From Candidatus Scatosoma sp. (GTDB taxonomy: Bacteria > Bacillota > Clostridia > Christensenellales > Borkfalkiaceae), in the NCBI GenBank assembly GCA_045533485.1, contig JAZSHX010000019.1, positions 8,300 to 72,299 on the forward strand: 64,000 nt of DNA, in the 5' to 3' direction. Position 1 is the stretch's first letter. Each line of letters starts with the position of its first letter. The notes beneath the pieces are model-generated. The model was given only the letters and a program-made list of their open reading frames with translations, was not told the origin of the DNA and ran no database searches. Below, piece by piece: positions 36,865 to 48,817 of this stretch. Both the position numbers and the translations under genes were made by a program.

Positions 36865-39861
36865 TTACAATGTTACTGTTCCGTCGTTGCAAACCACCTG
36901 CGTCGCAGGTACGCCTCGATTCCATCCATAACCTTTCTCAATCGCGTCCCATTCTTCTTTCGTACCATTAAACGTCAGGCTTGTTAGGATACAATCTTCA
37001 AACGCCCACCTACCAATGGTTTCTACACTGTCAGGAATGGTTACACGCGTTAAACTGTCACACGTATTGAACGCACCATCGCCAATCGTCGTTACACTGT
37101 CGCCAATAGTCACACTTGTTAAATTGCTACAAAACGCAAATGCGTAATAGCCAATCGAAGTTACACTGTCGGGGATAACGATGGCTTTTATCTTGTTATT
37201 TTCATAAAACGCCTGTTGATAAATACTTTTCACGGGCAGCCCGTTATAGGTATCCACAATGACAACATCCGTTGCCGTACCCGTATATCCAGTTACCATC
37301 GCATACGTGCCATCATCGGAAACTTGATATTGCAAACCATCCGTGCCTTGCAACAACGTCTTGGTGAAAATAATTTGCAAATCAGCAGATACGCCTTGAT
37401 TCCAATTTTCACCTTTCACAATCGCATCCCATTCTTCTTTTGTACCATCAAACGTAATGCTTGTTAAGTTTTTGCAATCCGCGAATGCATATTCGCCAAT
37501 AGAAATTATACTATTAGGAATTTCAAAGCTTGTTATATTAGTACAACCCTTAAATGCACCACCAGCAATAACCTTTGTTTCTTCATGGATAACATACGAA
37601 TACAAATTTTTATTTTTCGCATACAATACAGCATGATGTTCATTGCCTTCGTTGCCTAAATATGCAACATTGAGATAAATAGCAGGATAAAAACTATACA
37701 AGTATTCGGTAAGTATTGCATTATATGCAATATTTATTACACTATCGGGGATAATGATATTTTCCAAGCTAGAGCCATAATAGAAGGCATTTTCGGCAAG
37801 TGTCGTCACGCCATCAGGAACAATAAAGATATCTTCATAATAACTGGAAGCTAAAATAAGCGTTTTCCCGTCTTTTGTATATACACTACCATCTATTGAC
37901 TTGTATTTCGCATTATTCTCCGATATCGTTATATACAAAGACCAACACCAACCAAATTGCTCTCTTCCAATCCATTCTACACTATCACCGATAAAAACCG
38001 TACCCAATGATTCACAATGAGAAAATGCCCCAACGCCAATTGTTTTTACGCCGTTCCCGATTATTACATCAGATAAAACCATATTCTCAATAAACGCATA
38101 AGCACCAATTGAAATTACACTGTCAGGAATCACTAATTGCCCATGGTTACAACCAGCGAACGCATAATCACCTATTATCTTGACCCCATTCGGTATGTTT
38201 ACCGTAGAAATCCACCCAGTAGAAAAAGCATGATTATTAATAACTTGAATACTATCAGGAAGCATCACGCTCAACCATTCATGACCGCGATAAAATCCCC
38301 CGCCATTCCCAATGTGTGTTACCGGCACCCCATTATAAGTGCTAGCAACTCTGATCCGTGTTGCTGAACCTGTATAGCTTGTTGCAATTGCATAAGTACC
38401 ATCCGAAGAAATACAATATTCTATCCCTTCCGACGCCTTAATCAACATTTTGCAAACTGTACACACACCTTCTGCATCCAACGAGTGTTCTCCATAACCT
38501 TTTACCTTCGAACAATCTTTACATTCATACCAGTGATAAAAATCATCCAACGTATACGTTGTAAACCATGCGTGCGTATCAACAATCGCCGTGTAATTAT
38601 TTTTTATTTGTTCGCCACATTTACCACACGTTTTCACATCATAACCTTGCGTGGTACAAGTCGGCGCAACCGTTGTCACCTCGCCCCACTTATGTCCTGC
38701 CATAACGTAATTACTCTTTTCTTCCGTTCCGCACACACCGCAGGTTTTGGTGTCATAACCGTCCGTGGTACAGGTAGCCGCAACCGTTGTTGTTGCTCCC
38801 CACGTATGTCTTGCATTTACAAAATTCGTCTTTTCTACGTAATCGCAACGCGTACAAGGCGTTTGCGTGTAGCCGTCCGTTGTGCAAGTGGGCGCAACCG
38901 TCGTCGGCGTTCCCCACTTATGCCCTGCGGAAACGTAGTTTTCTTGCACTGCCGTTCCGCACGTTGTACACGTCTTGCTGTCATATCCTTGTTCCGTGCA
39001 AGTAGGCGCAACCGTCGTCACTGCGCCCCAAGCATGGTTATTCGAAATCGCCGTGTAGTTGTTCTTCACTTCTTCTCCGCAGGTTGTACACACCTTCACG
39101 TCATAACCCTGCACCTTACAGGTAGCCGCAACCGTTGTTGTTGCTCCCCATTTGTGTCCTGCTGGTACAACGTTTTCTTTTTTTACTTCACTGCAAGCCG
39201 TACAAGGCGTTTGCGTGTAACCGTCCGTCGTACAAGTGGGCGCAACCGTCGTCGGCGTTCCCCACTTATGCCCTGCGGAAACGTAGTTTTCTTGCACTGT
39301 CGTTCCGCACGTTGTACACGTCTTGCTGTCATATCCTTGTTCCGTGCAAGTAGGCGCAACCGTCACTACCGCGCCCCAAGCATGGTCGTTGCTGGTTGCC
39401 GTGTAGTTGCTTTTCACTTCTTCTCCGCATACACGACACGCCTTTTTATCATAACCTTGGTCTTTACAGGTAGGCGCAACCGTCACTACCGCACCCCACG
39501 CATGCGTTGCGTCCACGTGATTTTCTTGCACTGTCGTTCCGCAGACGTCGCAGGTTTTTTCATCATACCCCTGCTCCGTGCAAGTAGGCGCAACTTTCGT
39601 CACTTCGCCCCACGTATGTCTTGCCGGTACGAAATTTTCCTTTGCTTCTTCGCCACAGCTTGTACAAACTCTTGCATCGTAGCCATCTTTTGTACAGGTA
39701 GGCGCTACCGTGGTAGGGTTACCGTAGGTATGTACGTGCGGCGCATTCTCAATTTCGTAATTGCTATACGAATAATACGCTGAGCACGACGCCAAACCGC
39801 TAATCGTCAACGCCGAAAACAGCGCTACCAAGCATAACTTTAACCATTTTTTGCCTTTCAT
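36865..39861 (-). CDS. large surface lipoprotein A: lipobox signal peptide, 10 tandem His/Cys modules plus cap, two BspA-type leucine-rich-repeat blocks
   Basis: ORF 36865..39897. Start at ATG 39861 (GGAG upstream). Signal MKGKKWLKLCLVALFSALTISGLASC (lipobox LASC). Ten repeats of H.WG....VAPTC...GY....C..CG. LRR_5-like repeats (IPDSV..IG..AF..C..L). C-terminus FNGTKEEWDAIEKG.GWN...VVCNDGTVTL is paralogous to 43613..46855. Confidence 0.9.
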   Translation of the reverse strand: MKGKKWLKLCLVALFSALTISGLASCSAYYSYSNYEIENAPHVHTYGNPTTVAPTCTKDGYDARVCTSCGEEAKENFVPARHTWGEVTKVAPTCTEQGYDEKTCDVCGTTVQENHVDATHAWGAVVTVAPTCKDQGYDKKACRVCGEEVKSNYTATSNDHAWGAVVTVAPTCTEQGYDSKTCTTCGTTVQENYVSAGHKWGTPTTVAPTCTTDGYTQTPCTACSEVKKENVVPAGHKWGATTTVAATCKVQGYDVKVCTTCGEEVKNNYTAISNNHAWGAVTTVAPTCTEQGYDSKTCTTCGTAVQENYVSAGHKWGTPTTVAPTCTTDGYTQTPCTRCDYVEKTNFVNARHTWGATTTVAATCTTDGYDTKTCGVCGTEEKSNYVMAGHKWGEVTTVAPTCTTQGYDVKTCGKCGEQIKNNYTAIVDTHAWFTTYTLDDFYHWYECKDCSKVKGYGEHSLDAEGVCTVCKMLIKASEGIEYCISSDGTYAIATSYTGSATRIRVASTYNGVPVTHIGNGGGFYRGHEWLSVMLPDSIQVINNHAFSTGWISTVNIPNGVKIIGDYAFAGCNHGQLVIPDSVISIGAYAFIENMVLSDVIIGNGVKTIGVGAFSHCESLGTVFIGDSVEWIGREQFGWCWSLYITISENNAKYKSIDGSVYTKDGKTLILASSYYEDIFIVPDGVTTLAENAFYYGSSLENIIIPDSVINIAYNAILTEYLYSFYPAIYLNVAYLGNEGNEHHAVLYAKNKNLYSYVIHEETKVIAGGAFKGCTNITSFEIPNSIISIGEYAFADCKNLTSITFDGTKEEWDAIVKGENWNQGVSADLQIIFTKTLLQGTDGLQYQVSDDGTYAMVTGYTGTATDVVIVDTYNGLPVKSIYQQAFYENNKIKAIVIPDSVTSIGYYAFAFCSNLTSVTIGDSVTTIGDGAFNTCDSLTRVTIPDSVETIGRWAFEDCILTSLTFNGTKEEWDAIEKGYGWNRGVPATQVVCNDGTVTL
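38446..39738 (-). repeat. tandem array of ~114-120-nt coding repeats (His/Cys modules), including a near-identical internal duplication with 348-nt period
   Basis: Eleven consecutive 38-43-aa modules in the protein. DNA around 38885..39016 and 39233..39364 is almost identical; I saw one mismatch in about 130 nt by eye. Confidence 0.85.
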
Positions 39862-40045
39862 AAACCAATCTCCAAATAAAAAAGTGCCGTTTACCAAACG
39901 ATAAACGACACTGCATAAGTGCCTTTATCGCTTAGTTGCGACACTAACTCAAAAATAACCCATAGTGAAAGGTTTTATAGAAACGCGAAAAAGGTACACT
40001 TTGCCTAAAAGTATACTTCCACTATGCGTTATTAAGTTAGGTCGC
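39862..40045 (-). promoter_or_regulatory. structured 5' leader A: nested helices P1-P3, alternative antiterminator/pseudoknot pairings and an intrinsic terminator (candidate riboswitch-like attenuator)
   Basis: Hand folding of the minus-strand transcript. P1 is 40032..40045 with 39938..39952. P2 is 40020..40026 with 39961..39967. P3 is GUAUACUU/AAGUGUAC. Terminator arms 39882..39892 and 39902..39912 are followed by a U-run. Every helix is kept by compensatory changes in the paralogous leader at 46856..47037. Confidence 0.6.
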
Positions 40046-40051
40046 ATTTTC

Positions 40052-40080
40052 ATTTTACCACTTTTTTCTTATTTTTGCAA
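40052..40080 (-). promoter_or_regulatory. sigma-A type promoter of leader A (TTGCAA-17-TAAAAT)
   Basis: -35 at 40075..40080, 17-nt spacer, -10 at 40052..40057. The predicted start coincides with the 5' base of P1. Same geometry as 47044..47072. Confidence 0.6.
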
Positions 40081-40136: not shown

Positions 40137-42398
40137 TTAGCGTATTCGTCTTTCTTCTTTACAGGTGCAGTAAATAATTTGATATTTTTTTGCCAGCCGT
40201 TGCGCCATCCGCTTGGCAAGCGCGGTCGTCGTGTCGTCCAAATGCACGAACGGATCGTCGAAAAGCAGTACGGGCGGTTCGCCTGCGTACACCGCTTCGA
40301 TAAGCGCCAAGCGCATACAAAAACCTATCAATTCTTGCGTGCCTTGGCTGTAATACGCAAGGTCGCGCAACACGCCGTTTTGCTCCAACAGCGGCGTGCC
40401 GTCCGCCGTAAATTTCAAAGCGGCGGTAAAATCCGTTTTCAATTCCGCAAGCAATTTCGCGCTAATGCTTTCCACGGGCTGTAAGTACCGCGCAGCCATA
40501 TTTTCACGGGCGCGCTCCAAAAGTGTTTTCGCTGTTTGCAAAGCGCTGAAACGGCGTTCCAAACGCGCTTTTTCCGCAAGCAGCTGCGCTTCTTCCGCTT
40601 TATAATCGGCAAGCGAATACGCCTTTTGTTCCAGCGCCGCCACGCTGGCTTTCACGTTCGCAATCTCCATAAACGCCGCGCGCTCGTCCGTTTCCAACGC
40701 CGCAATCCGTTTTTTTAACTCTTCCACGTCCGCCATAGCGTACATATCGGCGGACATAGAGTCCGCAGACGCACTCTCCTTGGGCAAGCTTTCGCACGCC
40801 GAAACGGCAAGCTCCCGTTCTTGATATTCTTCTTGGTACGCTTCGCACTTTTCTTTGAGCGACGAAAGCGCCGCGCGGTAATCGTACGTTTCCGCAAACG
40901 CGAAATTGCTCAAAAAGCTCTCAATCGCCCCTTTCAGTTCTTCCGCGCGCCGTTGCCGATTACTCTTTTCTTCTATCAGCTGTTGAATATGCTCGTTTTC
41001 CAAAGCACTGTTTTGCAACTCAATTTGCAACCTGTCAAACTCACGCTGTACTTCCCGATAACGGCGGTTTAATTTTTTATCCTTGAACTTTTTACGGCGA
41101 AACGGGAATTTCCAAAACTTCGTGGAAAATACCGTTTCCAAAAATATCCACGCAATAAAACCGCCGCCCAAGCCCACTAACGGCCAACCGACCACGGGCA
41201 AGCTTTCGATTTGCGTTGCGCCGATCAGCGTGGCGATGAGTGCCAAAAGCAGTTTGAGCGTACCCATCTTTTGCTTTTGCTCGCTGGCGTTTGCTTCGCG
41301 TTGCACGTCGCGGAACGCTTTGCGCGCTTGCTGGTGCTGTTCGTCCAGCATTTGCTCAAACGATTGCAATTCCTTTTGACAGGTATGGTAGGCGTCCAAC
41401 AGCCCCTTGTATTCTTCCTGCTTCCGTCCTTGTTCGTACGATTGCGACTGTTGCGTTTCAAACCACGCAAGCAAATCGTAATACTCTCTCACGGCGTTTT
41501 CTATCCCTTCCACGTTGACCGTCAAGGGATTATTTTGCCCGAAAAACGCCTGTAATTTCGCAAGCTTTTCATCCGCGCGCGCTATGCGGCGTTGTAAATC
41601 CTGCCGTTCCATACGCGCGGCAATCCGCGTACTGTTTTGCATTTGCTCATCGCGCAAAGCGGAGAACTTTTGCAAATCCGCCTGCGTTTTGGCAAGCGAC
41701 GCGTTGAGCTCCTGCAACCGTTTCTGCGCGCCGTATAAATCGATAGCCGCCTGTTGACAATCGCGTTTTTGCGCTTCCAACTGATACAGACGCGCGTCGA
41801 TTTGGTCCAAAAGTCCGTTCTTAGGCGCACGTTTTCCGCGCAGTTTGCTTTCCGCCTGTTCCAAGCGTTGCAACGCCGTTTGCGCACCGCTTTGTTTGTC
41901 GTTTTCCACCGACAAAAGCGCAATCAACCGCGCTTTCGTGTCTTCGGGCAAGCCCTGCGCCGTCATTTCCCCGTGCGCGATATACGCCGTCCTATGATAG
42001 CTTTCTTTATTGATGCCCAAAATCAATTCGCCCAAATTTTCCACGTTTTCGCCAAACGCATAGGCAGGCAAATTGTTCTTATCGTACAACTTCACGGTAT
42101 CCATCGACGGCGTTTTTCCAAATGTGCGCTCTATACGATACGTTTCGTTTCGATAGGAAAAAGTCAAGCTTCCGCCGTACGTTCCCCCTTGGAACGGTTG
42201 ATATTTTTGGCGAATATCGTCCGCGACCTGCTTTCCGCGCGACGCATCCATACCAAAGAGCATACTTTCAATAAACGTGATAAGCGTCGTTTTGCCCCAG
42301 CCGTTGTCTTGCTTGATTTCCACAACGTCCTTGGATAAATCAAACGCTTGATTGATAAACTTACCAAACGCCGTAATATGGCAGGAAATCAGCTTCAT
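40137..42398 (-). CDS. SMC/Rad50-like AAA ATPase (YhaN/SbcE-like) with a central hydrophobic hairpin
   Basis: 753 aa. N-terminal P-loop NGWGKTT, long Q/E/K/L-rich coiled coil, two hydrophobic helices at about aa 380-424, and a C-terminal Walker B-like LLFDDPFVHLDD. Confidence 0.82.
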   Translation of the reverse strand: MKLISCHITAFGKFINQAFDLSKDVVEIKQDNGWGKTTLITFIESMLFGMDASRGKQVADDIRQKYQPFQGGTYGGSLTFSYRNETYRIERTFGKTPSMDTVKLYDKNNLPAYAFGENVENLGELILGINKESYHRTAYIAHGEMTAQGLPEDTKARLIALLSVENDKQSGAQTALQRLEQAESKLRGKRAPKNGLLDQIDARLYQLEAQKRDCQQAAIDLYGAQKRLQELNASLAKTQADLQKFSALRDEQMQNSTRIAARMERQDLQRRIARADEKLAKLQAFFGQNNPLTVNVEGIENAVREYYDLLAWFETQQSQSYEQGRKQEEYKGLLDAYHTCQKELQSFEQMLDEQHQQARKAFRDVQREANASEQKQKMGTLKLLLALIATLIGATQIESLPVVGWPLVGLGGGFIAWIFLETVFSTKFWKFPFRRKKFKDKKLNRRYREVQREFDRLQIELQNSALENEHIQQLIEEKSNRQRRAEELKGAIESFLSNFAFAETYDYRAALSSLKEKCEAYQEEYQERELAVSACESLPKESASADSMSADMYAMADVEELKKRIAALETDERAAFMEIANVKASVAALEQKAYSLADYKAEEAQLLAEKARLERRFSALQTAKTLLERARENMAARYLQPVESISAKLLAELKTDFTAALKFTADGTPLLEQNGVLRDLAYYSQGTQELIGFCMRLALIEAVYAGEPPVLLFDDPFVHLDDTTTALAKRMAQRLAKKYQIIYCTCKEERRIR

Positions 42399-43480
42399 AA
42401 CGCAATCTCCTCCCCTGCAAGCGCCTGCAACCCGATTTCCAGCACTTCCGCGCGGAAATCTTCGTTCATCTCATACCTGCCCACTTCTCTTATAAATTCT
42501 CCGCGCTCCGTCACGTCGTTTGCGTACGCCTGCGCGTCGATAAGAAGCCGCGATTCGTCCAGCACCTTCGCGTCGAAAAATATCTCTTTCAGCTTTTGCG
42601 TGAGCATAGCCGTATCCTTGCGCAAGCCCTGAAGGTATCTTCCGCAAAGCACGATTTTCACCAGCATATTTTTATCGATACCGCGCACTGCGCCAAGTAC
42701 CGCTTTTTCCACGTCGAAATACGTTTTACAAGCGGAAATATCCACGCGTACGGGCAAAATTTTGCGCGTAGCAAAGGAAAGGAACTTTTCCCCCACAAGC
42801 TTGCCGTTTTCCACTTCCAAAAGGAAAAATCCGCGATCGCCTTCTTCATCGTAACCGCGCCCTTCGGGGCAACCGCAATAGCGGTATTTTCCGCGCCCGT
42901 CCAAACGCTCCGCCTGCAAGGTGGGCTTATGTATATGTCCCAGCGCCAAATAATCAATATGCTTGTTTTGCAAGTACGCAAGCGGAATTTCGTCGTCCGT
43001 TTGCGCGTATTCCTTCACGACAGCGCCGTGTAAGAGCATAATGTTAAACGCGCGCGCGTCTAATTGCAAGGGCGAAGAAAACGCAGAAGAAAAATTGCTC
43101 GCGTCCGCGCCCGTCAGCACTACGTTTTCCCCTAAAGCGTATTGACAAAATGTGTTTTGATGGGAAAACAAATGCAAATTTTGCGGTAAGTGCGCAGGCA
43201 ACGCCACCTTTTTATCGTGATTGCCCGACACGTAGAAAAATTGCACGGGGCTTGCGCTTTCGATAAGCGAAAACACTTCGCCTTTCACCTGTGCCGATAC
43301 GTCGTTTTCGTCGAATAAATCGCCGGCAATCAGCACTGCGCCAACGCCGTTGGTTTTACAATACGCGCAAAGCTTGGCAAACCCGTCTAAAATTTCCGCT
43401 TTGCGAAGCAGCGCTTTATCCCTTGGCAACCCGACGAACGCCGAACCGATATGTATATCCCCCGTATGTACGATGCGCAC
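42395..43480 (-). CDS. metallophosphoesterase DNA-repair exonuclease (SbcD/YhaO-like)
   Basis: 361 aa. Motifs GDIHIG, GDLFD, GNHD, GHIH. GTG start. 4-nt overlap with the ATPase gene. Confidence 0.86.
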   Translation of the reverse strand: MRIVHTGDIHIGSAFVGLPRDKALLRKAEILDGFAKLCAYCKTNGVGAVLIAGDLFDENDVSAQVKGEVFSLIESASPVQFFYVSGNHDKKVALPAHLPQNLHLFSHQNTFCQYALGENVVLTGADASNFSSAFSSPLQLDARAFNIMLLHGAVVKEYAQTDDEIPLAYLQNKHIDYLALGHIHKPTLQAERLDGRGKYRYCGCPEGRGYDEEGDRGFFLLEVENGKLVGEKFLSFATRKILPVRVDISACKTYFDVEKAVLGAVRGIDKNMLVKIVLCGRYLQGLRKDTAMLTQKLKEIFFDAKVLDESRLLIDAQAYANDVTERGEFIREVGRYEMNEDFRAEVLEIGLQALAGEEIAL

Positions 43481-43540
43481 GGCTTTACCCCCTTTTTGTA
43501 TGCTATCGTTTCTATTATAGCACGAATTTTCACGAAAGTA

Positions 43541-43590
43541 AATAAAAAACAGGAAATTTCCCCAAAAGGAGTTTTTTCCTGTTTTTTTTG
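43541..43590. terminator. bidirectional terminator downstream of LRR lipoprotein B
   Basis: ACAGGAAA / TTTCCTGT stem flanked by an A-run and a T-run. Confidence 0.72.
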
Positions 43591-43612
43591 TTGTGTTATT
43601 TAAACTGTGTGG

Positions 43613-46600
43613 TTATAACGCCACCGTGCCGTCGGTGCAAACGACTTGTTTGACGGAAAGTCCATACGACCAGTTAACACTCTTACCAACAGCGTTCCAT
43701 TCTTCGATAGTCCCGTTGAATTTCAAGCTGGTGACAGCGGAACAGCCTTCAAAGGCATACCCTGCAATCACTTTCGTGTTTTTATGGATGGTATACGTTG
43801 TTAACTTCGTGTCGGAAACGTCCATCAACGCCGCAAAGGCATTGTTATCGTTGCCCAAATACTTGCAATTACCGTACGCAGTATACTGCAACGAATACGT
43901 ATTACTAAATGCATAACTGCCAATCGAAACAACGCTGTCAGGGATAACCACACTGGTTAAGCCACCACAATAATTGAAAGCCATTTCGCCGATAGACGTA
44001 ACACCGTCGGGTATCACCACTTCCCTTAAAGCGTAGCAGTTAGCGAAAGCATACGCGCCGATAGAGGTGACACTGTTAGGAATAACCACGCTGGTCAATT
44101 GATTACATTGGAAAAATGCATACGGTTTAATTTCCGTCACGCCTTCGGGAATCACCAAATCCGTAACAAGCTGATTGTTGATATATAATCTCGTCACTCC
44201 ACCATCGCCAAAGAAACTTGCGTTATGCTCTTTTACCGTAATATTACACCAACCTGCAACGTCCCCTTTATAATATACGTTTTGGACATAACACCTATAA
44301 AGAGCATAATCACCAACGGAAACAAGACTTGCGGGAACGGTAAGATTCGTTATGCCTACACTGTTGCCGTTATCAGAGGAGAACGCATACATTGCGATAT
44401 TTTCCACGCCGTCGGGAATAACAAAGTCCGTTCTGTGACCGTAACCGATGGCATAGCGCACAAGCGTTTTTCCGTCCTTTGTATACAGGTTTCCGTCAAT
44501 CGATTGATATGCCGTGTTGCTTTCGGATACAGCTATATTTTTCAAGCCGTAGCATGCATAGAAAGCCAGTTCCCCAATCGTTTCTACGCCAGCGCCAATC
44601 TGTATGCTTGTTACGGCTGTACACCCGTAAAACGTCCTTGCTCCCAACGTTGTAACGCTGTCGGGAATGACAATCTCCGCCAATGCGGAACAATTATAGA
44701 ATGCATCCTCGCCAATGGAAATAACGCCTTCGGGAATACTTATATTCGTTAAATTTTTGCAACCTGAAAAAGCGCCGCCTGCTATTACCTTGGTCTTTTC
44801 ATGCAACGTGTACGAGGATAAATCCGTGCTGGTAACCCCCATCAAGAAATAGAAATCGTTGCCGTCCACACCCAAATATTTACAATTTGCATATTCGGTA
44901 TAAGAAATTCTACAGTTATAAAATACGCGACTGCCAAGAGAAACAATACTCTCAGGAAGCTCTACGTTGGATAAAGCGCAATATGCAAACGCATCATAAC
45001 CGATAGAAGTAACACTGTCGGGAATAACAACACTACTTAAAGTTTCACAACGATAGAAAGCAGAATTGCCAATGGTCGTAACACCGTAAGGAATTACCAT
45101 TTCCTTTATACCTGTACAAGAATAAAATGCACAAGCTCCAATCGTTTCAACGCCGCTGCCCAGCGTTACGTTTTTCATTAAGCGACAATCACGGAATGCC
45201 TCAACGCCAATTGTTTTCACGCTGGCGGGAAGTACCAGCTCCGTCAAATCACAAGACCAGAATGCATGATAGTCAATCGTTTTTACGCTATTGCCCCACG
45301 TTATGCTGGTTAAGCCGCTATCCGAAAACGCATAACCGCCAATCGTTTCAACGCCGTTGCCAAGCGCTACACTTTTTAAAGCGCTACAGGAAGTGAAAGC
45401 ATATTGGGCAATCGTCTTTACGCTGTCGGGAATAACAACGGCTGTAATTTTTCTGTTTGAAGAAAATGCGTTTTTGGAAATACCCGTCACCGGTACGCCG
45501 TTGTATGTATCGGCAATTTTCACTTTCGTTGCCGTACCTTCATAACCCGTCACTTCCGCATACGTACCGTCCGCGGAAAGCGTATATACAACACCTACCG
45601 TTTCCGTAATAGGTTGACCGCAAAGCGTACAAATATCGTTTTCGCCGTATACGTGCTCTTCCTTTTCTTGGGTTGCGTCACACTTTTGGCATGCATACCA
45701 GTGATACGTGCCGTCCGCCGTATACGTATTTGCCCAAGTATGCTGCGCGTCTACGAAGTTATTTGTCGTTTCCGCTTCGCAAACGGTACATTTAACCACG
45801 TCGTAGCCCCGTTCGGTGCAAGTGGGCGCTACCGTGGAAACGGTTTCCCATGCGTGGTTGTCCGTTACTTCCGTATAATTGCTCTTTTGCGTCGCTTCGC
45901 AATTTATGCACGTTTGCAAATCATAGCCCTGCTCTGCGCAAGTAGGCTCTACCGTCACCGCTTCGCCCCACGTATGTCCGCCGTGTTTCCACTCAATATC
46001 GCTACACGTTGCGCAAATTCTGGACAACAGCGTTTGTTCGCAAAATACGTTTTCCGTAGCGCCAAAAGCTACCCATTCGCCCCAACTATGTACATGCTCT
46101 TCTTCCTTGGGCATTTCCACCGTTTGCCAAGTTCCGTTGGAATAATAGATTATTAAGTTTCCATCTTTATCTATTTCAACTTTGGTTATGCTGACGCCCT
46201 GCTCGCCTTGGTCGCCCTTGTCACCCTTTTCGCCTTGGATGCCTTGCTCACCTTGGTCGCCCTTATCACCCTTGTCGCCTTTCTCGCCTTGGATGCCCTG
46301 TTCGCCTTGGATGCCTTGTTCGCCCTGGTCGCCCTTGTCACCCTTTTCGCCTTGGATGCCTTGTTCGCCTTGGTCGCCCTTATCACCCTTTTCGCCTTGG
46401 ATGCCCTGCTCGCCTTGGTCGCCCTGGTCGCCTTTTTCACCCTTTTCGCCCTGGATGCCTTGCTCACCTTGGTCGCCTTTATCACCCTTTTCACCTTGGA
46501 TGCCTTGTTCGCCTTTCAGCCATGCTAAAAAATCCGCTTGCGTGCCGCTATGCCCGTTCGCAAGCCAAATTTCATAGGCAGATTGTCCATCCGCCCCGTT

Positions 46601-46855
46601 TATGCCGTCTTTACCATCCGCGCCGTCTTCCCCTTGAATGGTCGCGAGCCAAATTTCATACGAAAGCGGTGTTTCCCCCTGCGCTTCCACGTATACGACG
46701 TACTGTTGGTACACGGCTTTGATTTGTTCGTCCATTTGAACGCCATTTACGCTTGAAGAAGATTTATCCCCCACATCACAGCCGCCAAGGGCCAAGCCCG
46801 CGCCAAACATACTCATAAGTGAGAGCGCAAGCGTCAAGATTTTTTTGCCTTTCAT
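43613..46855 (-). CDS. large surface lipoprotein B: lipobox signal peptide, collagen-like G-X-Y region, His/Cys modules plus cap, BspA-type LRR blocks
   Basis: 1080 aa. Signal MKGKKILTLALSLMSMFGAGLALGGC. Two YEIWLA motifs. About 35 G-X-Y triplets (GEKGDKGDQGEQGIQ units). Modules H.WGEAVTVEPTC..GY....C..C. LRR_5-like repeats. C-terminus FNGTIEEWNAVGKSVNW...VVCTDGTVAL. Confidence 0.9.
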   Translation of the reverse strand: MKGKKILTLALSLMSMFGAGLALGGCDVGDKSSSSVNGVQMDEQIKAVYQQYVVYVEAQGETPLSYEIWLATIQGEDGADGKDGINGADGQSAYEIWLANGHSGTQADFLAWLKGEQGIQGEKGDKGDQGEQGIQGEKGEKGDQGDQGEQGIQGEKGDKGDQGEQGIQGEKGDKGDQGEQGIQGEQGIQGEKGDKGDKGDQGEQGIQGEKGDKGDQGEQGVSITKVEIDKDGNLIIYYSNGTWQTVEMPKEEEHVHSWGEWVAFGATENVFCEQTLLSRICATCSDIEWKHGGHTWGEAVTVEPTCAEQGYDLQTCINCEATQKSNYTEVTDNHAWETVSTVAPTCTERGYDVVKCTVCEAETTNNFVDAQHTWANTYTADGTYHWYACQKCDATQEKEEHVYGENDICTLCGQPITETVGVVYTLSADGTYAEVTGYEGTATKVKIADTYNGVPVTGISKNAFSSNRKITAVVIPDSVKTIAQYAFTSCSALKSVALGNGVETIGGYAFSDSGLTSITWGNSVKTIDYHAFWSCDLTELVLPASVKTIGVEAFRDCRLMKNVTLGSGVETIGACAFYSCTGIKEMVIPYGVTTIGNSAFYRCETLSSVVIPDSVTSIGYDAFAYCALSNVELPESIVSLGSRVFYNCRISYTEYANCKYLGVDGNDFYFLMGVTSTDLSSYTLHEKTKVIAGGAFSGCKNLTNISIPEGVISIGEDAFYNCSALAEIVIPDSVTTLGARTFYGCTAVTSIQIGAGVETIGELAFYACYGLKNIAVSESNTAYQSIDGNLYTKDGKTLVRYAIGYGHRTDFVIPDGVENIAMYAFSSDNGNSVGITNLTVPASLVSVGDYALYRCYVQNVYYKGDVAGWCNITVKEHNASFFGDGGVTRLYINNQLVTDLVIPEGVTEIKPYAFFQCNQLTSVVIPNSVTSIGAYAFANCYALREVVIPDGVTSIGEMAFNYCGGLTSVVIPDSVVSIGSYAFSNTYSLQYTAYGNCKYLGNDNNAFAALMDVSDTKLTTYTIHKNTKVIAGYAFEGCSAVTSLKFNGTIEEWNAVGKSVNWSYGLSVKQVVCTDGTVAL
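46196..46513 (-). repeat. imperfect 45-nt tandem coding repeat (collagen-like GEKGDKGDQGEQGIQ units with 9-nt indels)
   Basis: Protein aa 115-220 is uninterrupted G-X-Y. The DNA shows the repeated block ccttggtcgcccttgtcacccttttcgccttggatgccttg. Confidence 0.9.
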
Positions 46856-47037
46856 TGTTTTCCTCCAAAAAATAAAAAGTGTCGCCTTAACGAATAAGAC
46901 GACACTGACAAAAGTGGCTTATCCGCTAAAGTTGCGACACTCAATTAAAATCTAATCGTACAAAAGATTTATGTAACGCAAATAAGGTACACTTATGCCC
47001 TATAAGTATACTTTTGTACGTATTTAATTGAGTTCGC
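46856..47037 (-). promoter_or_regulatory. structured 5' leader B, a diverged paralogue of leader A with the same fold and terminator
   Basis: P1 is 47023..47037 with 46934..46949. P2 is 47011..47020 with 46957..46966. P3 is GUAUACUU/AAGUGUAC. Terminator arms 46878..46889 and 46895..46906 are followed by a U-run, then GGAGG SD and ATG. Confidence 0.6.
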
Positions 47038-47043
47038 AGTTTC

Positions 47044-47072
47044 ATTTTAGCACTTTTCTTTGCATTTGGCAA
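47044..47072 (-). promoter_or_regulatory. sigma-A type promoter of leader B (TTGCCA-17-TAAAAT)
   Basis: -35 at 47067..47072, 17-nt spacer, -10 at 47044..47049. Confidence 0.6.
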
Positions 47073-47092: not shown

Positions 47093-47130
47093 CGAAAAAA
47101 AACCGCCTTGGCGAAATAAACAAGGCGGTT
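47093..47130 (-). terminator. terminator of the Na/Pi transporter gene
   Basis: AACCGCCTTG / CAAGGCGGTT 10-bp stem followed on the minus strand by TTTTTTCGCG. Confidence 0.8.
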
Positions 47131-47146
47131 GAAAATTTATTTAGTT

Positions 47147-48817
47147 TTAGATAAGCTCGGCTTTTCTTGCTTCGCTTTGTGAACCCGTAGGGTTCAAAAT
47201 ACTGAAACCTACGTTGACAAGGTGGTCGGCTACACGTTCCAGCCCGGCAACCGTCGACGAGAAGTACGCCGAAAGCTCAACTTTACAGTTTCCTTCCGCA
47301 AGACGCGTAAAGTGGCTTGCCGTCAACGTGCGTTTCATTTCGTCCACTTGGTTTTCAAGCTCGGTCAATTCGCCAAGGCGCGTGCTCTTGTTATCGTCGA
47401 ACGCTTCGCTTGCAATTTCAAACATACGCAGGATTTTGCCGTGCATTTCCTTTAAGTCTGCAAGCGCATTTTCCGAGAAAGACAACCCTTCCGCCGCCAT
47501 TTGCGTGCCGATTTCGTGGAAGTTTTCCGCGTGGTCGCCAACGCGTTCTACGTCGTTTAATACGTGGAAATACGAACCGATTACCTTTTCGTCGCCTGCG
47601 GCTACAAGGGGGGAAAGCTTGATTAAGTATTTGGAAAGCGCATGGTTGGTGAAGTCGATAATTTCTTCGTTTTCGTAAATGGCTTTGCCGTTTGTATCGG
47701 AGCCCGTGAAAATGGCGTTGAACGATTTTTCAATATTTTCACGCGCAAGCGCCGCCATATATTCGATTTCTTTTTTCACCTGCATCATAGCAACGGGCGG
47801 CGTTTTGAGTAAGCGTTCGTCGACGTATTTGAAATGGCGTTGATTTTCTTCAACGGGTTTATCTTTGATAACGCGCATAGCAAGCTTGACAATCGACGGA
47901 ATAAAGCTGATAAGCAAGAAGGTGGTTGTCACGTTGAAGATTACGTGGAACCAAGCAAGCTGCATTTGCGGATTGTTCGGCATAAACGCTTGCAGGAAAT
48001 TGATTGCCGGGTGTTTGAAAATCCAAATTAAGATGGTAAACAGCATCGAACCGACCGTTTTACAGAATACGTGAATAAACGCCGTGCGTTTTGCGTTGAC
48101 GCCTGCGCCCACGCATGCAAGGAGCGCCGTTGCACACGTACCGATGTTGGAGCCGATAACCAAGAACAGCGCTTCTTCCAGCCCAAGCGCGCCTGCGCCG
48201 ACCATCGTGATGAAAATACCCGTTGCCGCCGAAGAGCTTTGGATGATTGCCGTGAATACCGCACCAAGCAAAACAAGAATTAAAGGGAAGCTCATATCCC
48301 TAAATAAGTTTTGGAAGAAATTGATGATCGCTTGTCCGCCTTCCGTAGTTGTATCAAACGCGTTGCCCATAAGATTGAGCCCCACGAAAATCAAACCAAA
48401 GCCGCTTAAAATTTCGCCTACTTGTTTGATTTTTTGCGATTTGAAGAAGGTCATTATGACGCCGACAAACGCCAAAAGCGCCAACCAGTCGGAAATACCA
48501 AGCGATTTTAAGGATACGATGATGCCCGTTATCGTCGTACCGATGTTACCGCCCAAAATAATTGCGGTGGCTTGGTACAAGGTCATAATCCCTGCGTTTA
48601 CAAAACCGATGACCATAACGCTGGTTGCCGATGAGCTTTGGATAATCGCCGTTACCCCCGCACCGATACCAACCCCTGCCAAGCGGTTGTTGCTGATTTT
48701 GCCAAGCAGGGTTTTCATACCCTTACCTGCACTCTTTTCCAGTCCGTCGCCAAGCATATTCATGCCTGCGATAAACACGCCCACACCTGCGAGCAATAAT
48801 AAGAAACACGTTAACAT
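47147..48817 (-). CDS. Na/Pi cotransporter family protein with C-terminal PhoU-like domain
   Basis: ORF 47147..49042. Start at ATG 48817 (AAGGAGGG upstream). Duplicated IQSSSA(T/A) motifs in the membrane domain. Helical PhoU-like C-terminus (ERVGDHAEN, LERVADHLVN). Confidence 0.88.
   Translation of the reverse strand: MLTCFLLLLAGVGVFIAGMNMLGDGLEKSAGKGMKTLLGKISNNRLAGVGIGAGVTAIIQSSSATSVMVIGFVNAGIMTLYQATAIILGGNIGTTITGIIVSLKSLGISDWLALLAFVGVIMTFFKSQKIKQVGEILSGFGLIFVGLNLMGNAFDTTTEGGQAIINFFQNLFRDMSFPLILVLLGAVFTAIIQSSSAATGIFITMVGAGALGLEEALFLVIGSNIGTCATALLACVGAGVNAKRTAFIHVFCKTVGSMLFTILIWIFKHPAINFLQAFMPNNPQMQLAWFHVIFNVTTTFLLISFIPSIVKLAMRVIKDKPVEENQRHFKYVDERLLKTPPVAMMQVKKEIEYMAALARENIEKSFNAIFTGSDTNGKAIYENEEIIDFTNHALSKYLIKLSPLVAAGDEKVIGSYFHVLNDVERVGDHAENFHEIGTQMAAEGLSFSENALADLKEMHGKILRMFEIASEAFDDNKSTRLGELTELENQVDEMKRTLTASHFTRLAEGNCKVELSAYFSSTVAGLERVADHLVNVGFSILNPTGSQSEARKAELI

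Follow-up and report, generated by a model that had tools for sequence, protein, structure and literature searches.

The window, by which we mean the whole 64-kb stretch of DNA analyzed here, encodes on its minus strand two large lipoproteins with LRR_5 domains. Gene B (43613..46855) encodes a 1080-amino acid lipoprotein that carries a lipoprotein signal and matches the BspA-type LRR_5 domain at E = 1.8e-124, and a long collagen-like GEKGDKGDQGEQGIQ repeat lies N-terminal of its LRR_5 domains. Gene A (36865..39861) encodes a 998-amino acid lipoprotein that combines LRR_5 domains with about ten tandem Cys-rich repeats of about 37 amino acids (TVAPTCTxQGYDxKxCxxCG...). An exact look-up of the 1080-amino acid protein returned no record, and its closest homologue is 41% identical. 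After gene B on the same strand, an SbcD-like metallophosphoesterase (361 amino acids) and an SbcC/AAA_23-like ATPase (753 amino acids) are encoded at 40137-43480, with a gap of 132 nt (43481-43612) from gene B and a strong terminator (40125-40097) at which the pair stops. These two genes may be co-transcribed with gene B and hence may stand under the control of the leader described below.

Upstream of gene B lies leader B, an RNA of about 165 nt with its own promoter and intrinsic terminator (46866-47072, minus strand). The promoter (47044..47072, minus strand) consists of the -35 element TTGCCA (47072-47067), a 17-nt spacer and an extended -10 element, TGcTAAAAT, in which TAAAAT occupies 47049-47044 with the TG just upstream; the 5' end of the leader, UGCGAACUCAAUUAAA, is located about 6 nt downstream of the -10. 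The arrangement TTGACA-17-TG-n-TAAAAT was found upstream of most homologues too. As a hairpin (AACCGCCUUG...CAAGGCGGUU) followed by U8, at about 47135-47097, closes the upstream Na/Pi-cotransporter gene, leader B is a separate transcription unit, and the terminator of a preceding gene was found before both of the leader promoters in the window. Weak Rfam matches to PyrR and LhrC at 47095-47203 were rejected, being merely this terminator of the Na/Pi-cotransporter gene. At the other end, a Shine-Dalgarno sequence (GGAGG) lies between the terminator of leader B and the ATG at 46855, which is 18 nt downstream of that terminator.

The leader B RNA (46866..47038, minus strand, as are all elements that follow) runs from the 5' end of P1 (UGCGAA...) through the U-tract of the terminator; covariance model (CM) R2 matches it at 46873-47038 with 116 bits (E = 1.4e-23), and its minimum free energy (MFE) of -52.8 kcal/mol corresponds to z = -6.4 relative to shuffled sequence. 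P1 is formed by UGCGAACUCAAUUAAA (47023..47038) and UUUAAUUGAG-U-GUCGCA (46933..46949), both read on the sequence and assigned through covariation in the final alignment, A8. P2 is formed by CGUACAAAAG (47011..47020; from sequence and fold) and CUUUUGUACG (46957..46966; from sequence, fold and A8 covariation), and the P3 hairpin, GUAUACUUAU-AGGGC-AUAAGUGUAC (46987..47011), is a conserved stem in the alignment, with G47011 assignable to P2 or to P3. The J3/2 internal loop holds strand d (CUUAUUUGCGUU, 46975..46986), the putative 5' strand of a pseudoknot, for which the pairing sequence is CCUUAUUUGC (46987-46978). In the tail, strand d' (GCGGAUAAG, 46918..46926) is complementary to d, or to the 5' arm of the terminator. 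The predicted antiterminator hairpin (CGGAUAAGCCACU ... AGUGUC-G-UCUUAUUCG, 46891..46925) has an energy of -10.8 kcal/mol in leader B, and the intrinsic terminator AGUGUCGUCUUA/UAAGGCGACACU (46866..46906) comprises a 12-bp stem (46906-46878) with a 5-nt loop, followed by the U-tract. An earlier reading of this stretch made from the sequence only had listed the promoter TTGCCA-17-TAAAAT and these elements and pairings, and every one of them is present on the minus strand.

A short module, GACA(Y), recurs three times in the leader, at the 5' end (UGCGACA), in the tail (GGACAU or GGCAC) and in the 3' arm of the terminator (GCGACAC), and its complement, GUGUC, is present twice. The corresponding sites in the window are 47033-47038, 46933-46940, 46900-46906 and 46878-46884 (minus strand), with matching positions in all homologues. 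It follows from this recurrence that P1 and the terminator have the same basal helix, with the two strands exchanged.

Leader A is the sole other copy within the window and is 73% identical to leader B. With its promoter it spans 39878..40080 (minus strand), with TTGCAA-17-TAAAAT at 40080-40052, the RNA at 40046-39878 and the terminator at 39912-39883; it scores 133.5 bits with the CM and folds with z = -7.5 relative to shuffled sequence. Both leaders end in what defines an intrinsic terminator, namely a G+C-containing hairpin directly before a U-tract. A structural alignment of the two copies contains nine pairs in which both sides changed and pairing was kept, three pairs with a one-sided change and 26 identical pairs.

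In order to find homologues, the best protein homologue of gene B (41% identity) was followed to its contig, L136, where the leader recurs with P1 and P2 sequences of its own. Blocks common to leaders A, B and L136 were then combined into a DNA pattern for scanning a one-genome-per-species collection, which yielded 56 loci, 55 of them genuine and one a chance match (Desulfosarcina). The genuine loci all belong to gut MAGs labelled Clostridia, Clostridiales, Christensenellaceae or Candidatus Scatosoma (which NCBI places in Clostridia incertae sedis), the source guts being those of ruminants, chickens and humans, and many genomes hold two to four copies. A metagenome scan with strand d left unconstrained gave 11 loci only, including four new haplotypes and one chance match, and one further member (L206) was found on the contig of another LRR homologue. 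The resulting set of 59 distinct sequences comprises the 55 genome loci, which by a count of record titles stem from roughly 38 species-level MAGs, and a few metagenome contigs. CMs retrieve all members with E between 1e-15 and 1e-38, and by CM there is a single leader copy per fetched locus, none intragenic or randomly oriented. LRR genes without the leader were also observed (L205, L208). Short DNA patterns run against viral contigs gave chance matches only, without blastn similarity to the leaders.

The family falls into two subtypes, type I (...GCAACUAAGCGAUAAAGGCAC...), to which both window copies belong, and type II (...GCAGCAAAGCGAGAAGGACAUUUUUAC...). A GC-richer variant with 50% G+C was observed at L196:5646-5802 (plus strand) and L201:3282-3438 (minus strand); here the hairpin at the terminator position, GGUGCCGCC/GGCGGCACC, is followed by CUUUAC without a clear U-tract; about 60 nt farther downstream comes another hairpin, and this one has a U-tract. 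In two other MAGs, a longer structured leader of about 220 nt with a terminator precedes collagen/LRR lipoprotein genes (L137:9673-9895 and L207:2740-2962, both plus strand), and these two have GCCAAAC.../...GUUUGGCGAC and GGAGUUUGCGUUUUU in common. As neither gave a CM R2 match at E <= 0.001, they were rejected as family members and treated as a separate leader, which may constitute another class of leader for genes of this type.

When the unaligned leaders were given to MAFFT and RNAalifold, just P3 and the terminator were recovered, since the strands of P1 and P2 were misaligned. A CM was therefore built from one sequence and its MFE structure to produce an alignment (A5), from which the CM was rebuilt to yield A8 with all 59 distinct sequences. 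In A8, 94.8% of the cells at paired positions hold standard pairs, compared to 74.9% in column shuffles and 35-50% when the partner strand was slid by one to three columns. Both sides have changed in 40 of the 55 pairs (30.7 in shuffles, 21-26 when slid) and in 568 individual cells (158 and 114-137, respectively), and the covariation score is 0.507 (0.168 and 0.077-0.109). None of 500 shuffles reached the observed values on any of these measures, and the covariation that had been proposed from two copies thus withstood the larger alignment. As A8 was fitted to the model structure, these values carry some circularity, which the slid controls and folds made without any alignment mitigate and do not remove. 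In the alignment-free MFE folds, the base of P1 formed in 59/59 sequences and P3 in 46/59, with 24-35 bp around P3, and z averaged -7. A conserved, structured aptamer-like domain with covariation, as expected of a riboswitch, is therefore seen both in A8 and in the alignment-free folds.

Individual helices differ in how they have changed. P2 is wholly variable in sequence with its pairing kept, and all 19 of its pairs covary in A8; P1 covaries in 11 of 14 pairs (96.9% paired), with a near-invariant basal UGCGA/UCGCA across the family. The P1 3' strand segment GUGUCGCA had been fixed by the search patterns, yet its 5' partner, UGCGAC, which was left free, is conserved as well. The terminator covaries in seven of 12 pairs; the conservation of its stem is far above that usual for terminators. 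In P3, three of ten pairs covary and the others are invariant or changed on one side, including an internal U.G pair present in 59/59 sequences and A-U, C-G and U-A pairs that are invariant or nearly so. In addition, the 5' strand of type II members is of near-constant length, with GUGUA beginning at position 52-54 in almost all, which fits a tertiary constraint. The sequence-only reading had claimed a functional structured RNA in place of a passively duplicated upstream region, and the compensated pairs of P1, P2 and the terminator across the 59 homologues bear this out. Its conserved single-stranded segments GCGUU, GUGUCGCA and the GG of the P3 loop likewise hold family-wide. Its statement that every proposed helix is compensated was too strong: this is true of P1, P2 and the terminator and was not found for the pseudoknot, where two double changes equal the shuffle mean at low power.

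For the pseudoknot, d (A8 columns 64-72) and d' (columns 157-165) are paired in 93.3% of cells, compared to 49-72% in slid registers and 92.1% in column shuffles. Both strands vary very little, and neither the number of double-changed pairs (2; shuffle mean 2.0) nor the covariation score, which was equalled by 51 of 500 shuffles, stands out significantly from the column shuffles, in a comparison of low power, since most of d was fixed by the genome pattern. The U-A to A-U swap that had been read from leaders A and B is real between those two and does not extend to the family as a whole: of the 11 sequences in which the swapped position is A (A67-U162 in A8), four pair and seven are mismatched. 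Energetically, the d:d' duplex averages -10.6 kcal/mol vs -5.0 kcal/mol for shuffled tails, and in leader B it reaches -10.0 kcal/mol vs -3.8 kcal/mol. In metagenome sequences with the d variant UCUUUUCGC, the tail carries GCGAGAGG or GCGGGAG, and 7-8 bp are kept via one-sided changes. The complementarity of d and d' is, judging from these sequence comparisons, real and conserved, and the pseudoknot would form physically through this pairing. Because d' begins 5-8 nt past a rod of about 30 bp made of P1 and P2, the rod would probably have to bend at the conserved P1/P2 bulge, or the P1 base to fray, for the pseudoknot to form.

The same tail strand takes part in the predicted expression platform. 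When the tail was folded without the 3' arm of the terminator, about 49 of 53 sequences paired d' and its flank with the loop and 5' arm of the terminator, which agrees with the retention of an antiterminator proposed earlier for leader B, and this predicted antiterminator always employs d', the strand that also serves the pseudoknot. Mean energies are -16.5 kcal/mol for the terminator and -12.6 kcal/mol for the antiterminator. In fixed registers, the inner helix of the antiterminator is 92.6% paired and the outer helix of type II is 88% paired. The differences between the two types are coordinated, GAUAAAG occurring with CUUUAUC and GAGAAGG with UUUCGU, and thus d' and the terminator arms t and t' change together. 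Folding predictions and complementarity accordingly point to a mutually exclusive terminator and antiterminator that share a strand with the aptamer, as in riboswitches. An alternative antiterminator between the UGCGAC 5' end and the GUGUCG arm of the terminator was considered and rejected, as the 5' end does not follow the arm variants GUGCCG and GUGCUG.

The genes behind the leaders are largely of one kind. LRR_5 domains were detected in 29 of the 50 proteins downstream of leaders, many of which are truncated at locus ends, and about 40 of the 50 begin with a signal peptide and lipobox Cys. The remaining proteins have collagen-like, Flg_new, Big_2 or TIR_2 domains, or no known domain. The TIR_2 domains occur in two leader-associated proteins (among the loci of alignment A6) and are unusual beside surface lipoproteins. 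At two loci, a short RiPP-type precursor-like peptide was observed after the leader: as the first ORF at L171:2558-2707 (minus strand; MDKIKYQKPELYWVKLEDEDIITTS..., 50 amino acids), and right after the leader at about 1000-1170 of L165 (plus strand; MYETPKLQVIAFE...). In most loci, 16-60 nt separate the U-tract from the first ORF, and the gap to the start codon, usually 16-40 nt, leaves no space for a second promoter. Unlike a transporter or biosynthetic operon, this regulon does not indicate a metabolite. Made up of surface proteins and some unrelated genes, it would fit the output of a second messenger and names no ligand.

Comparison with known RNAs gave no assignment to a described class. 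Rfam 15 (4227 covariance models) yielded no matches at the gathering threshold across the whole window, and at E <= 10 on leader B, leader A and the type II leader L183 yielded chance hits only (miRNA, snoRNA and sRNA models, 13-25 bits, well below thresholds). A search of the full-text literature for this leader motif found no description. Like the c-di-GMP riboswitches (class I GEMM and class II), the leaders are termination-platform 5' leaders before surface and adhesion genes, with several copies per genome, and a pseudoknot, which is putative here, is employed by the class II c-di-GMP riboswitch. They differ in architecture, one long hairpin interrupted by a single asymmetric loop in place of the two-hairpin GEMM fold or the kink-turn fold of class II, and in a predicted default polarity that would be OFF on binding. 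On the isolated leaders, relaxing the threshold to E <= 10 still gave no match to the c-di-GMP-II riboswitch (RF01786). A motif grep for GGDEF and HD-GYP over the ORFs of the window found none, a result that carries little information.

Other attenuators share parts of this design. In the ZTP/pfl, NAD+-II/pnuC, SAM-II/V and preQ1-II riboswitches, a 3' tail pairs with an internal-loop or junction strand and is shared with the expression platform. The tail of the present leader would likewise pair back to an unpaired strand and be shared with the predicted expression platform, but its putative pseudoknot is 8-10 bp long, U/purine-rich and separated from its partner by a helix of about 30 bp, and no sequence or CM similarity to these riboswitches was found. 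The resemblance to T-box leaders lies in a long, structured, multi-copy Firmicutes leader with competition between terminator and antiterminator; there was no match to the T-box model (RF00230) and no specifier loop or T-box sequence in the leaders, and aminoacyl-tRNA or amino-acid genes are not among the genes downstream of them. As in the four-segment trp/his attenuators (1:2, 2:3, 3:4), three exclusive pairings (d:d', d':t, t:t') would set whether a terminator forms before the gene. Unlike in those attenuators, segment 1 (d) lies inside the internal loop of a stable 30-bp hairpin and there is no leader peptide ORF, neither a conserved start codon nor a conserved ORF being visible in the aligned leaders; ribosome stalling is therefore excluded as the sensor. 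The long, almost unbranched hairpin also differs from most metabolite aptamers.

Taken together, leader B is likely a member of an uncatalogued family of cis-acting 5' leaders that control transcriptional read-through to BspA-type LRR surface lipoprotein genes. The best reading of the leader is a riboswitch-like transcription attenuator, that is, a new RNA family of a regulatory kind already known. Termination would be regulated as follows. Each copy has a sigma-70-type promoter of its own, with the transcript beginning at or a few nt from P1, and folds into a hairpin of about 30 bp in which P1 is followed by a bulge on the 3' side, then by P2, an asymmetric internal loop and finally P3. On the 3' side of that loop lies the C-U-rich strand d (CUUUUUCGCGUUAYAA), to which the purine-rich tail d' (GCGAGAAGG or GCGAUAAAGG), 5-8 nt past P1, is complementary. 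The alternative pairing of d' with the terminator 5' arm and loop would create the antiterminator, leaving d:d', d':t and t:t' as the options. An effector on the P3/J3-2 core may lock d:d', upon which the terminator would form and end transcription (OFF) at a point some 16-40 nt short of the start codon; release of d:d' would allow d' to pair with t, no terminator would form and the lipoprotein gene would be transcribed.

As to the effector, a small molecule or second messenger appears somewhat more likely than a protein. The hypothesis of a riboswitch-type aptamer is favored by the large conserved core (P3, J3/2, tail and P1 base) and the conserved helix lengths. In its most specific form, which we put forward as a tentative possibility, the leader would be a new orphan riboswitch class, in which an aptamer made of P1, P2, P3 and the loop-tail pseudoknot binds a small molecule and switches off the whole regulon of adhesin-like BspA-type LRR lipoproteins in uncultured gut Clostridia that bear the labels Ca. 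Scatosoma or Christensenellaceae. The CD2831 and CD3246 adhesins of C. difficile are under the control of class II c-di-GMP riboswitches (PMC11477304), and by analogy a nucleotide second messenger is an attractive candidate ligand.

An attenuator that depends on a protein (or on a tRNA or sRNA) would explain several of the same observations. Here a clade-specific factor would bind P3 and J3/2 and, by occupying d, determine whether d' can pair with the terminator arm, and binding would lead to read-through. Such a factor would be consistent with a P3 stem that is conserved in sequence (U.G in 59/59) instead of covarying, with the unusually conserved terminator stem GUGUCG/CGACAC that repeats the P1 base, with the long unbranched hairpin architecture, with a regulon of surface proteins and not metabolic genes, and with a narrow range confined to MAGs labelled Ca. 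Scatosoma, Christensenellaceae or Clostridia. However, conservation covers a large region (about 60 nt) and includes helix lengths, more than is required by known protein-binding sites such as PyrR, RAT and ANTAR. A non-systematic look at the loci noticed no candidate regulator gene and no conserved neighbor gene, and neither a leader peptide ORF nor T-box features were found. We regard this explanation as rather unlikely, though one to be taken seriously beside the small-molecule riboswitch.

The remaining explanations deny the leader a role in controlling the gene behind it. A promoter, a stable structure and an intrinsic terminator would equally suit an independent trans-acting sRNA gene that lies upstream of lipoprotein genes by chance, and terminated transcripts are expected in either case. 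This is improbable, as the orientation is always that of the next gene at a distance of about 16-60 nt with no space for a second promoter, several diverged copies per genome each precede a different gene, and a conserved antiterminator would be purposeless in a plain sRNA gene. Even less credible, to the point of being almost negligible, is a passively duplicated promoter/5' UTR cassette or REP/MITE-like repeat without function at the RNA level. Multiple copies, long inverted repeats and the position of the window copies 7 kb apart before paralogous genes are what such a duplication would produce, but P1 and P2 have fully diverged in sequence and remain paired, where drift would have destroyed the pairing toward the shuffled (74.9%) or slid (35-50%) values. 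Strand and distance to the downstream ORF are fixed, and the solitary, never intragenic or randomly oriented copies at the fetched loci speak against a repeat element.

The riboswitch-like attenuator remains the preferred reading. In these abundant uncultured gut Clostridia of ruminants, chickens and humans, BspA-type LRR lipoproteins dominate the predicted surface and adhesion proteins, and to our knowledge nothing has been reported on their regulation in this group. A shared and strongly conserved attenuator ahead of many of their genes implies that a single common signal sets the repertoire of the cell surface. If that signal is a small molecule, a new riboswitch class would be added to those known, and identifying the signal would open the host-interaction and colonization biology of this clade to experiment.
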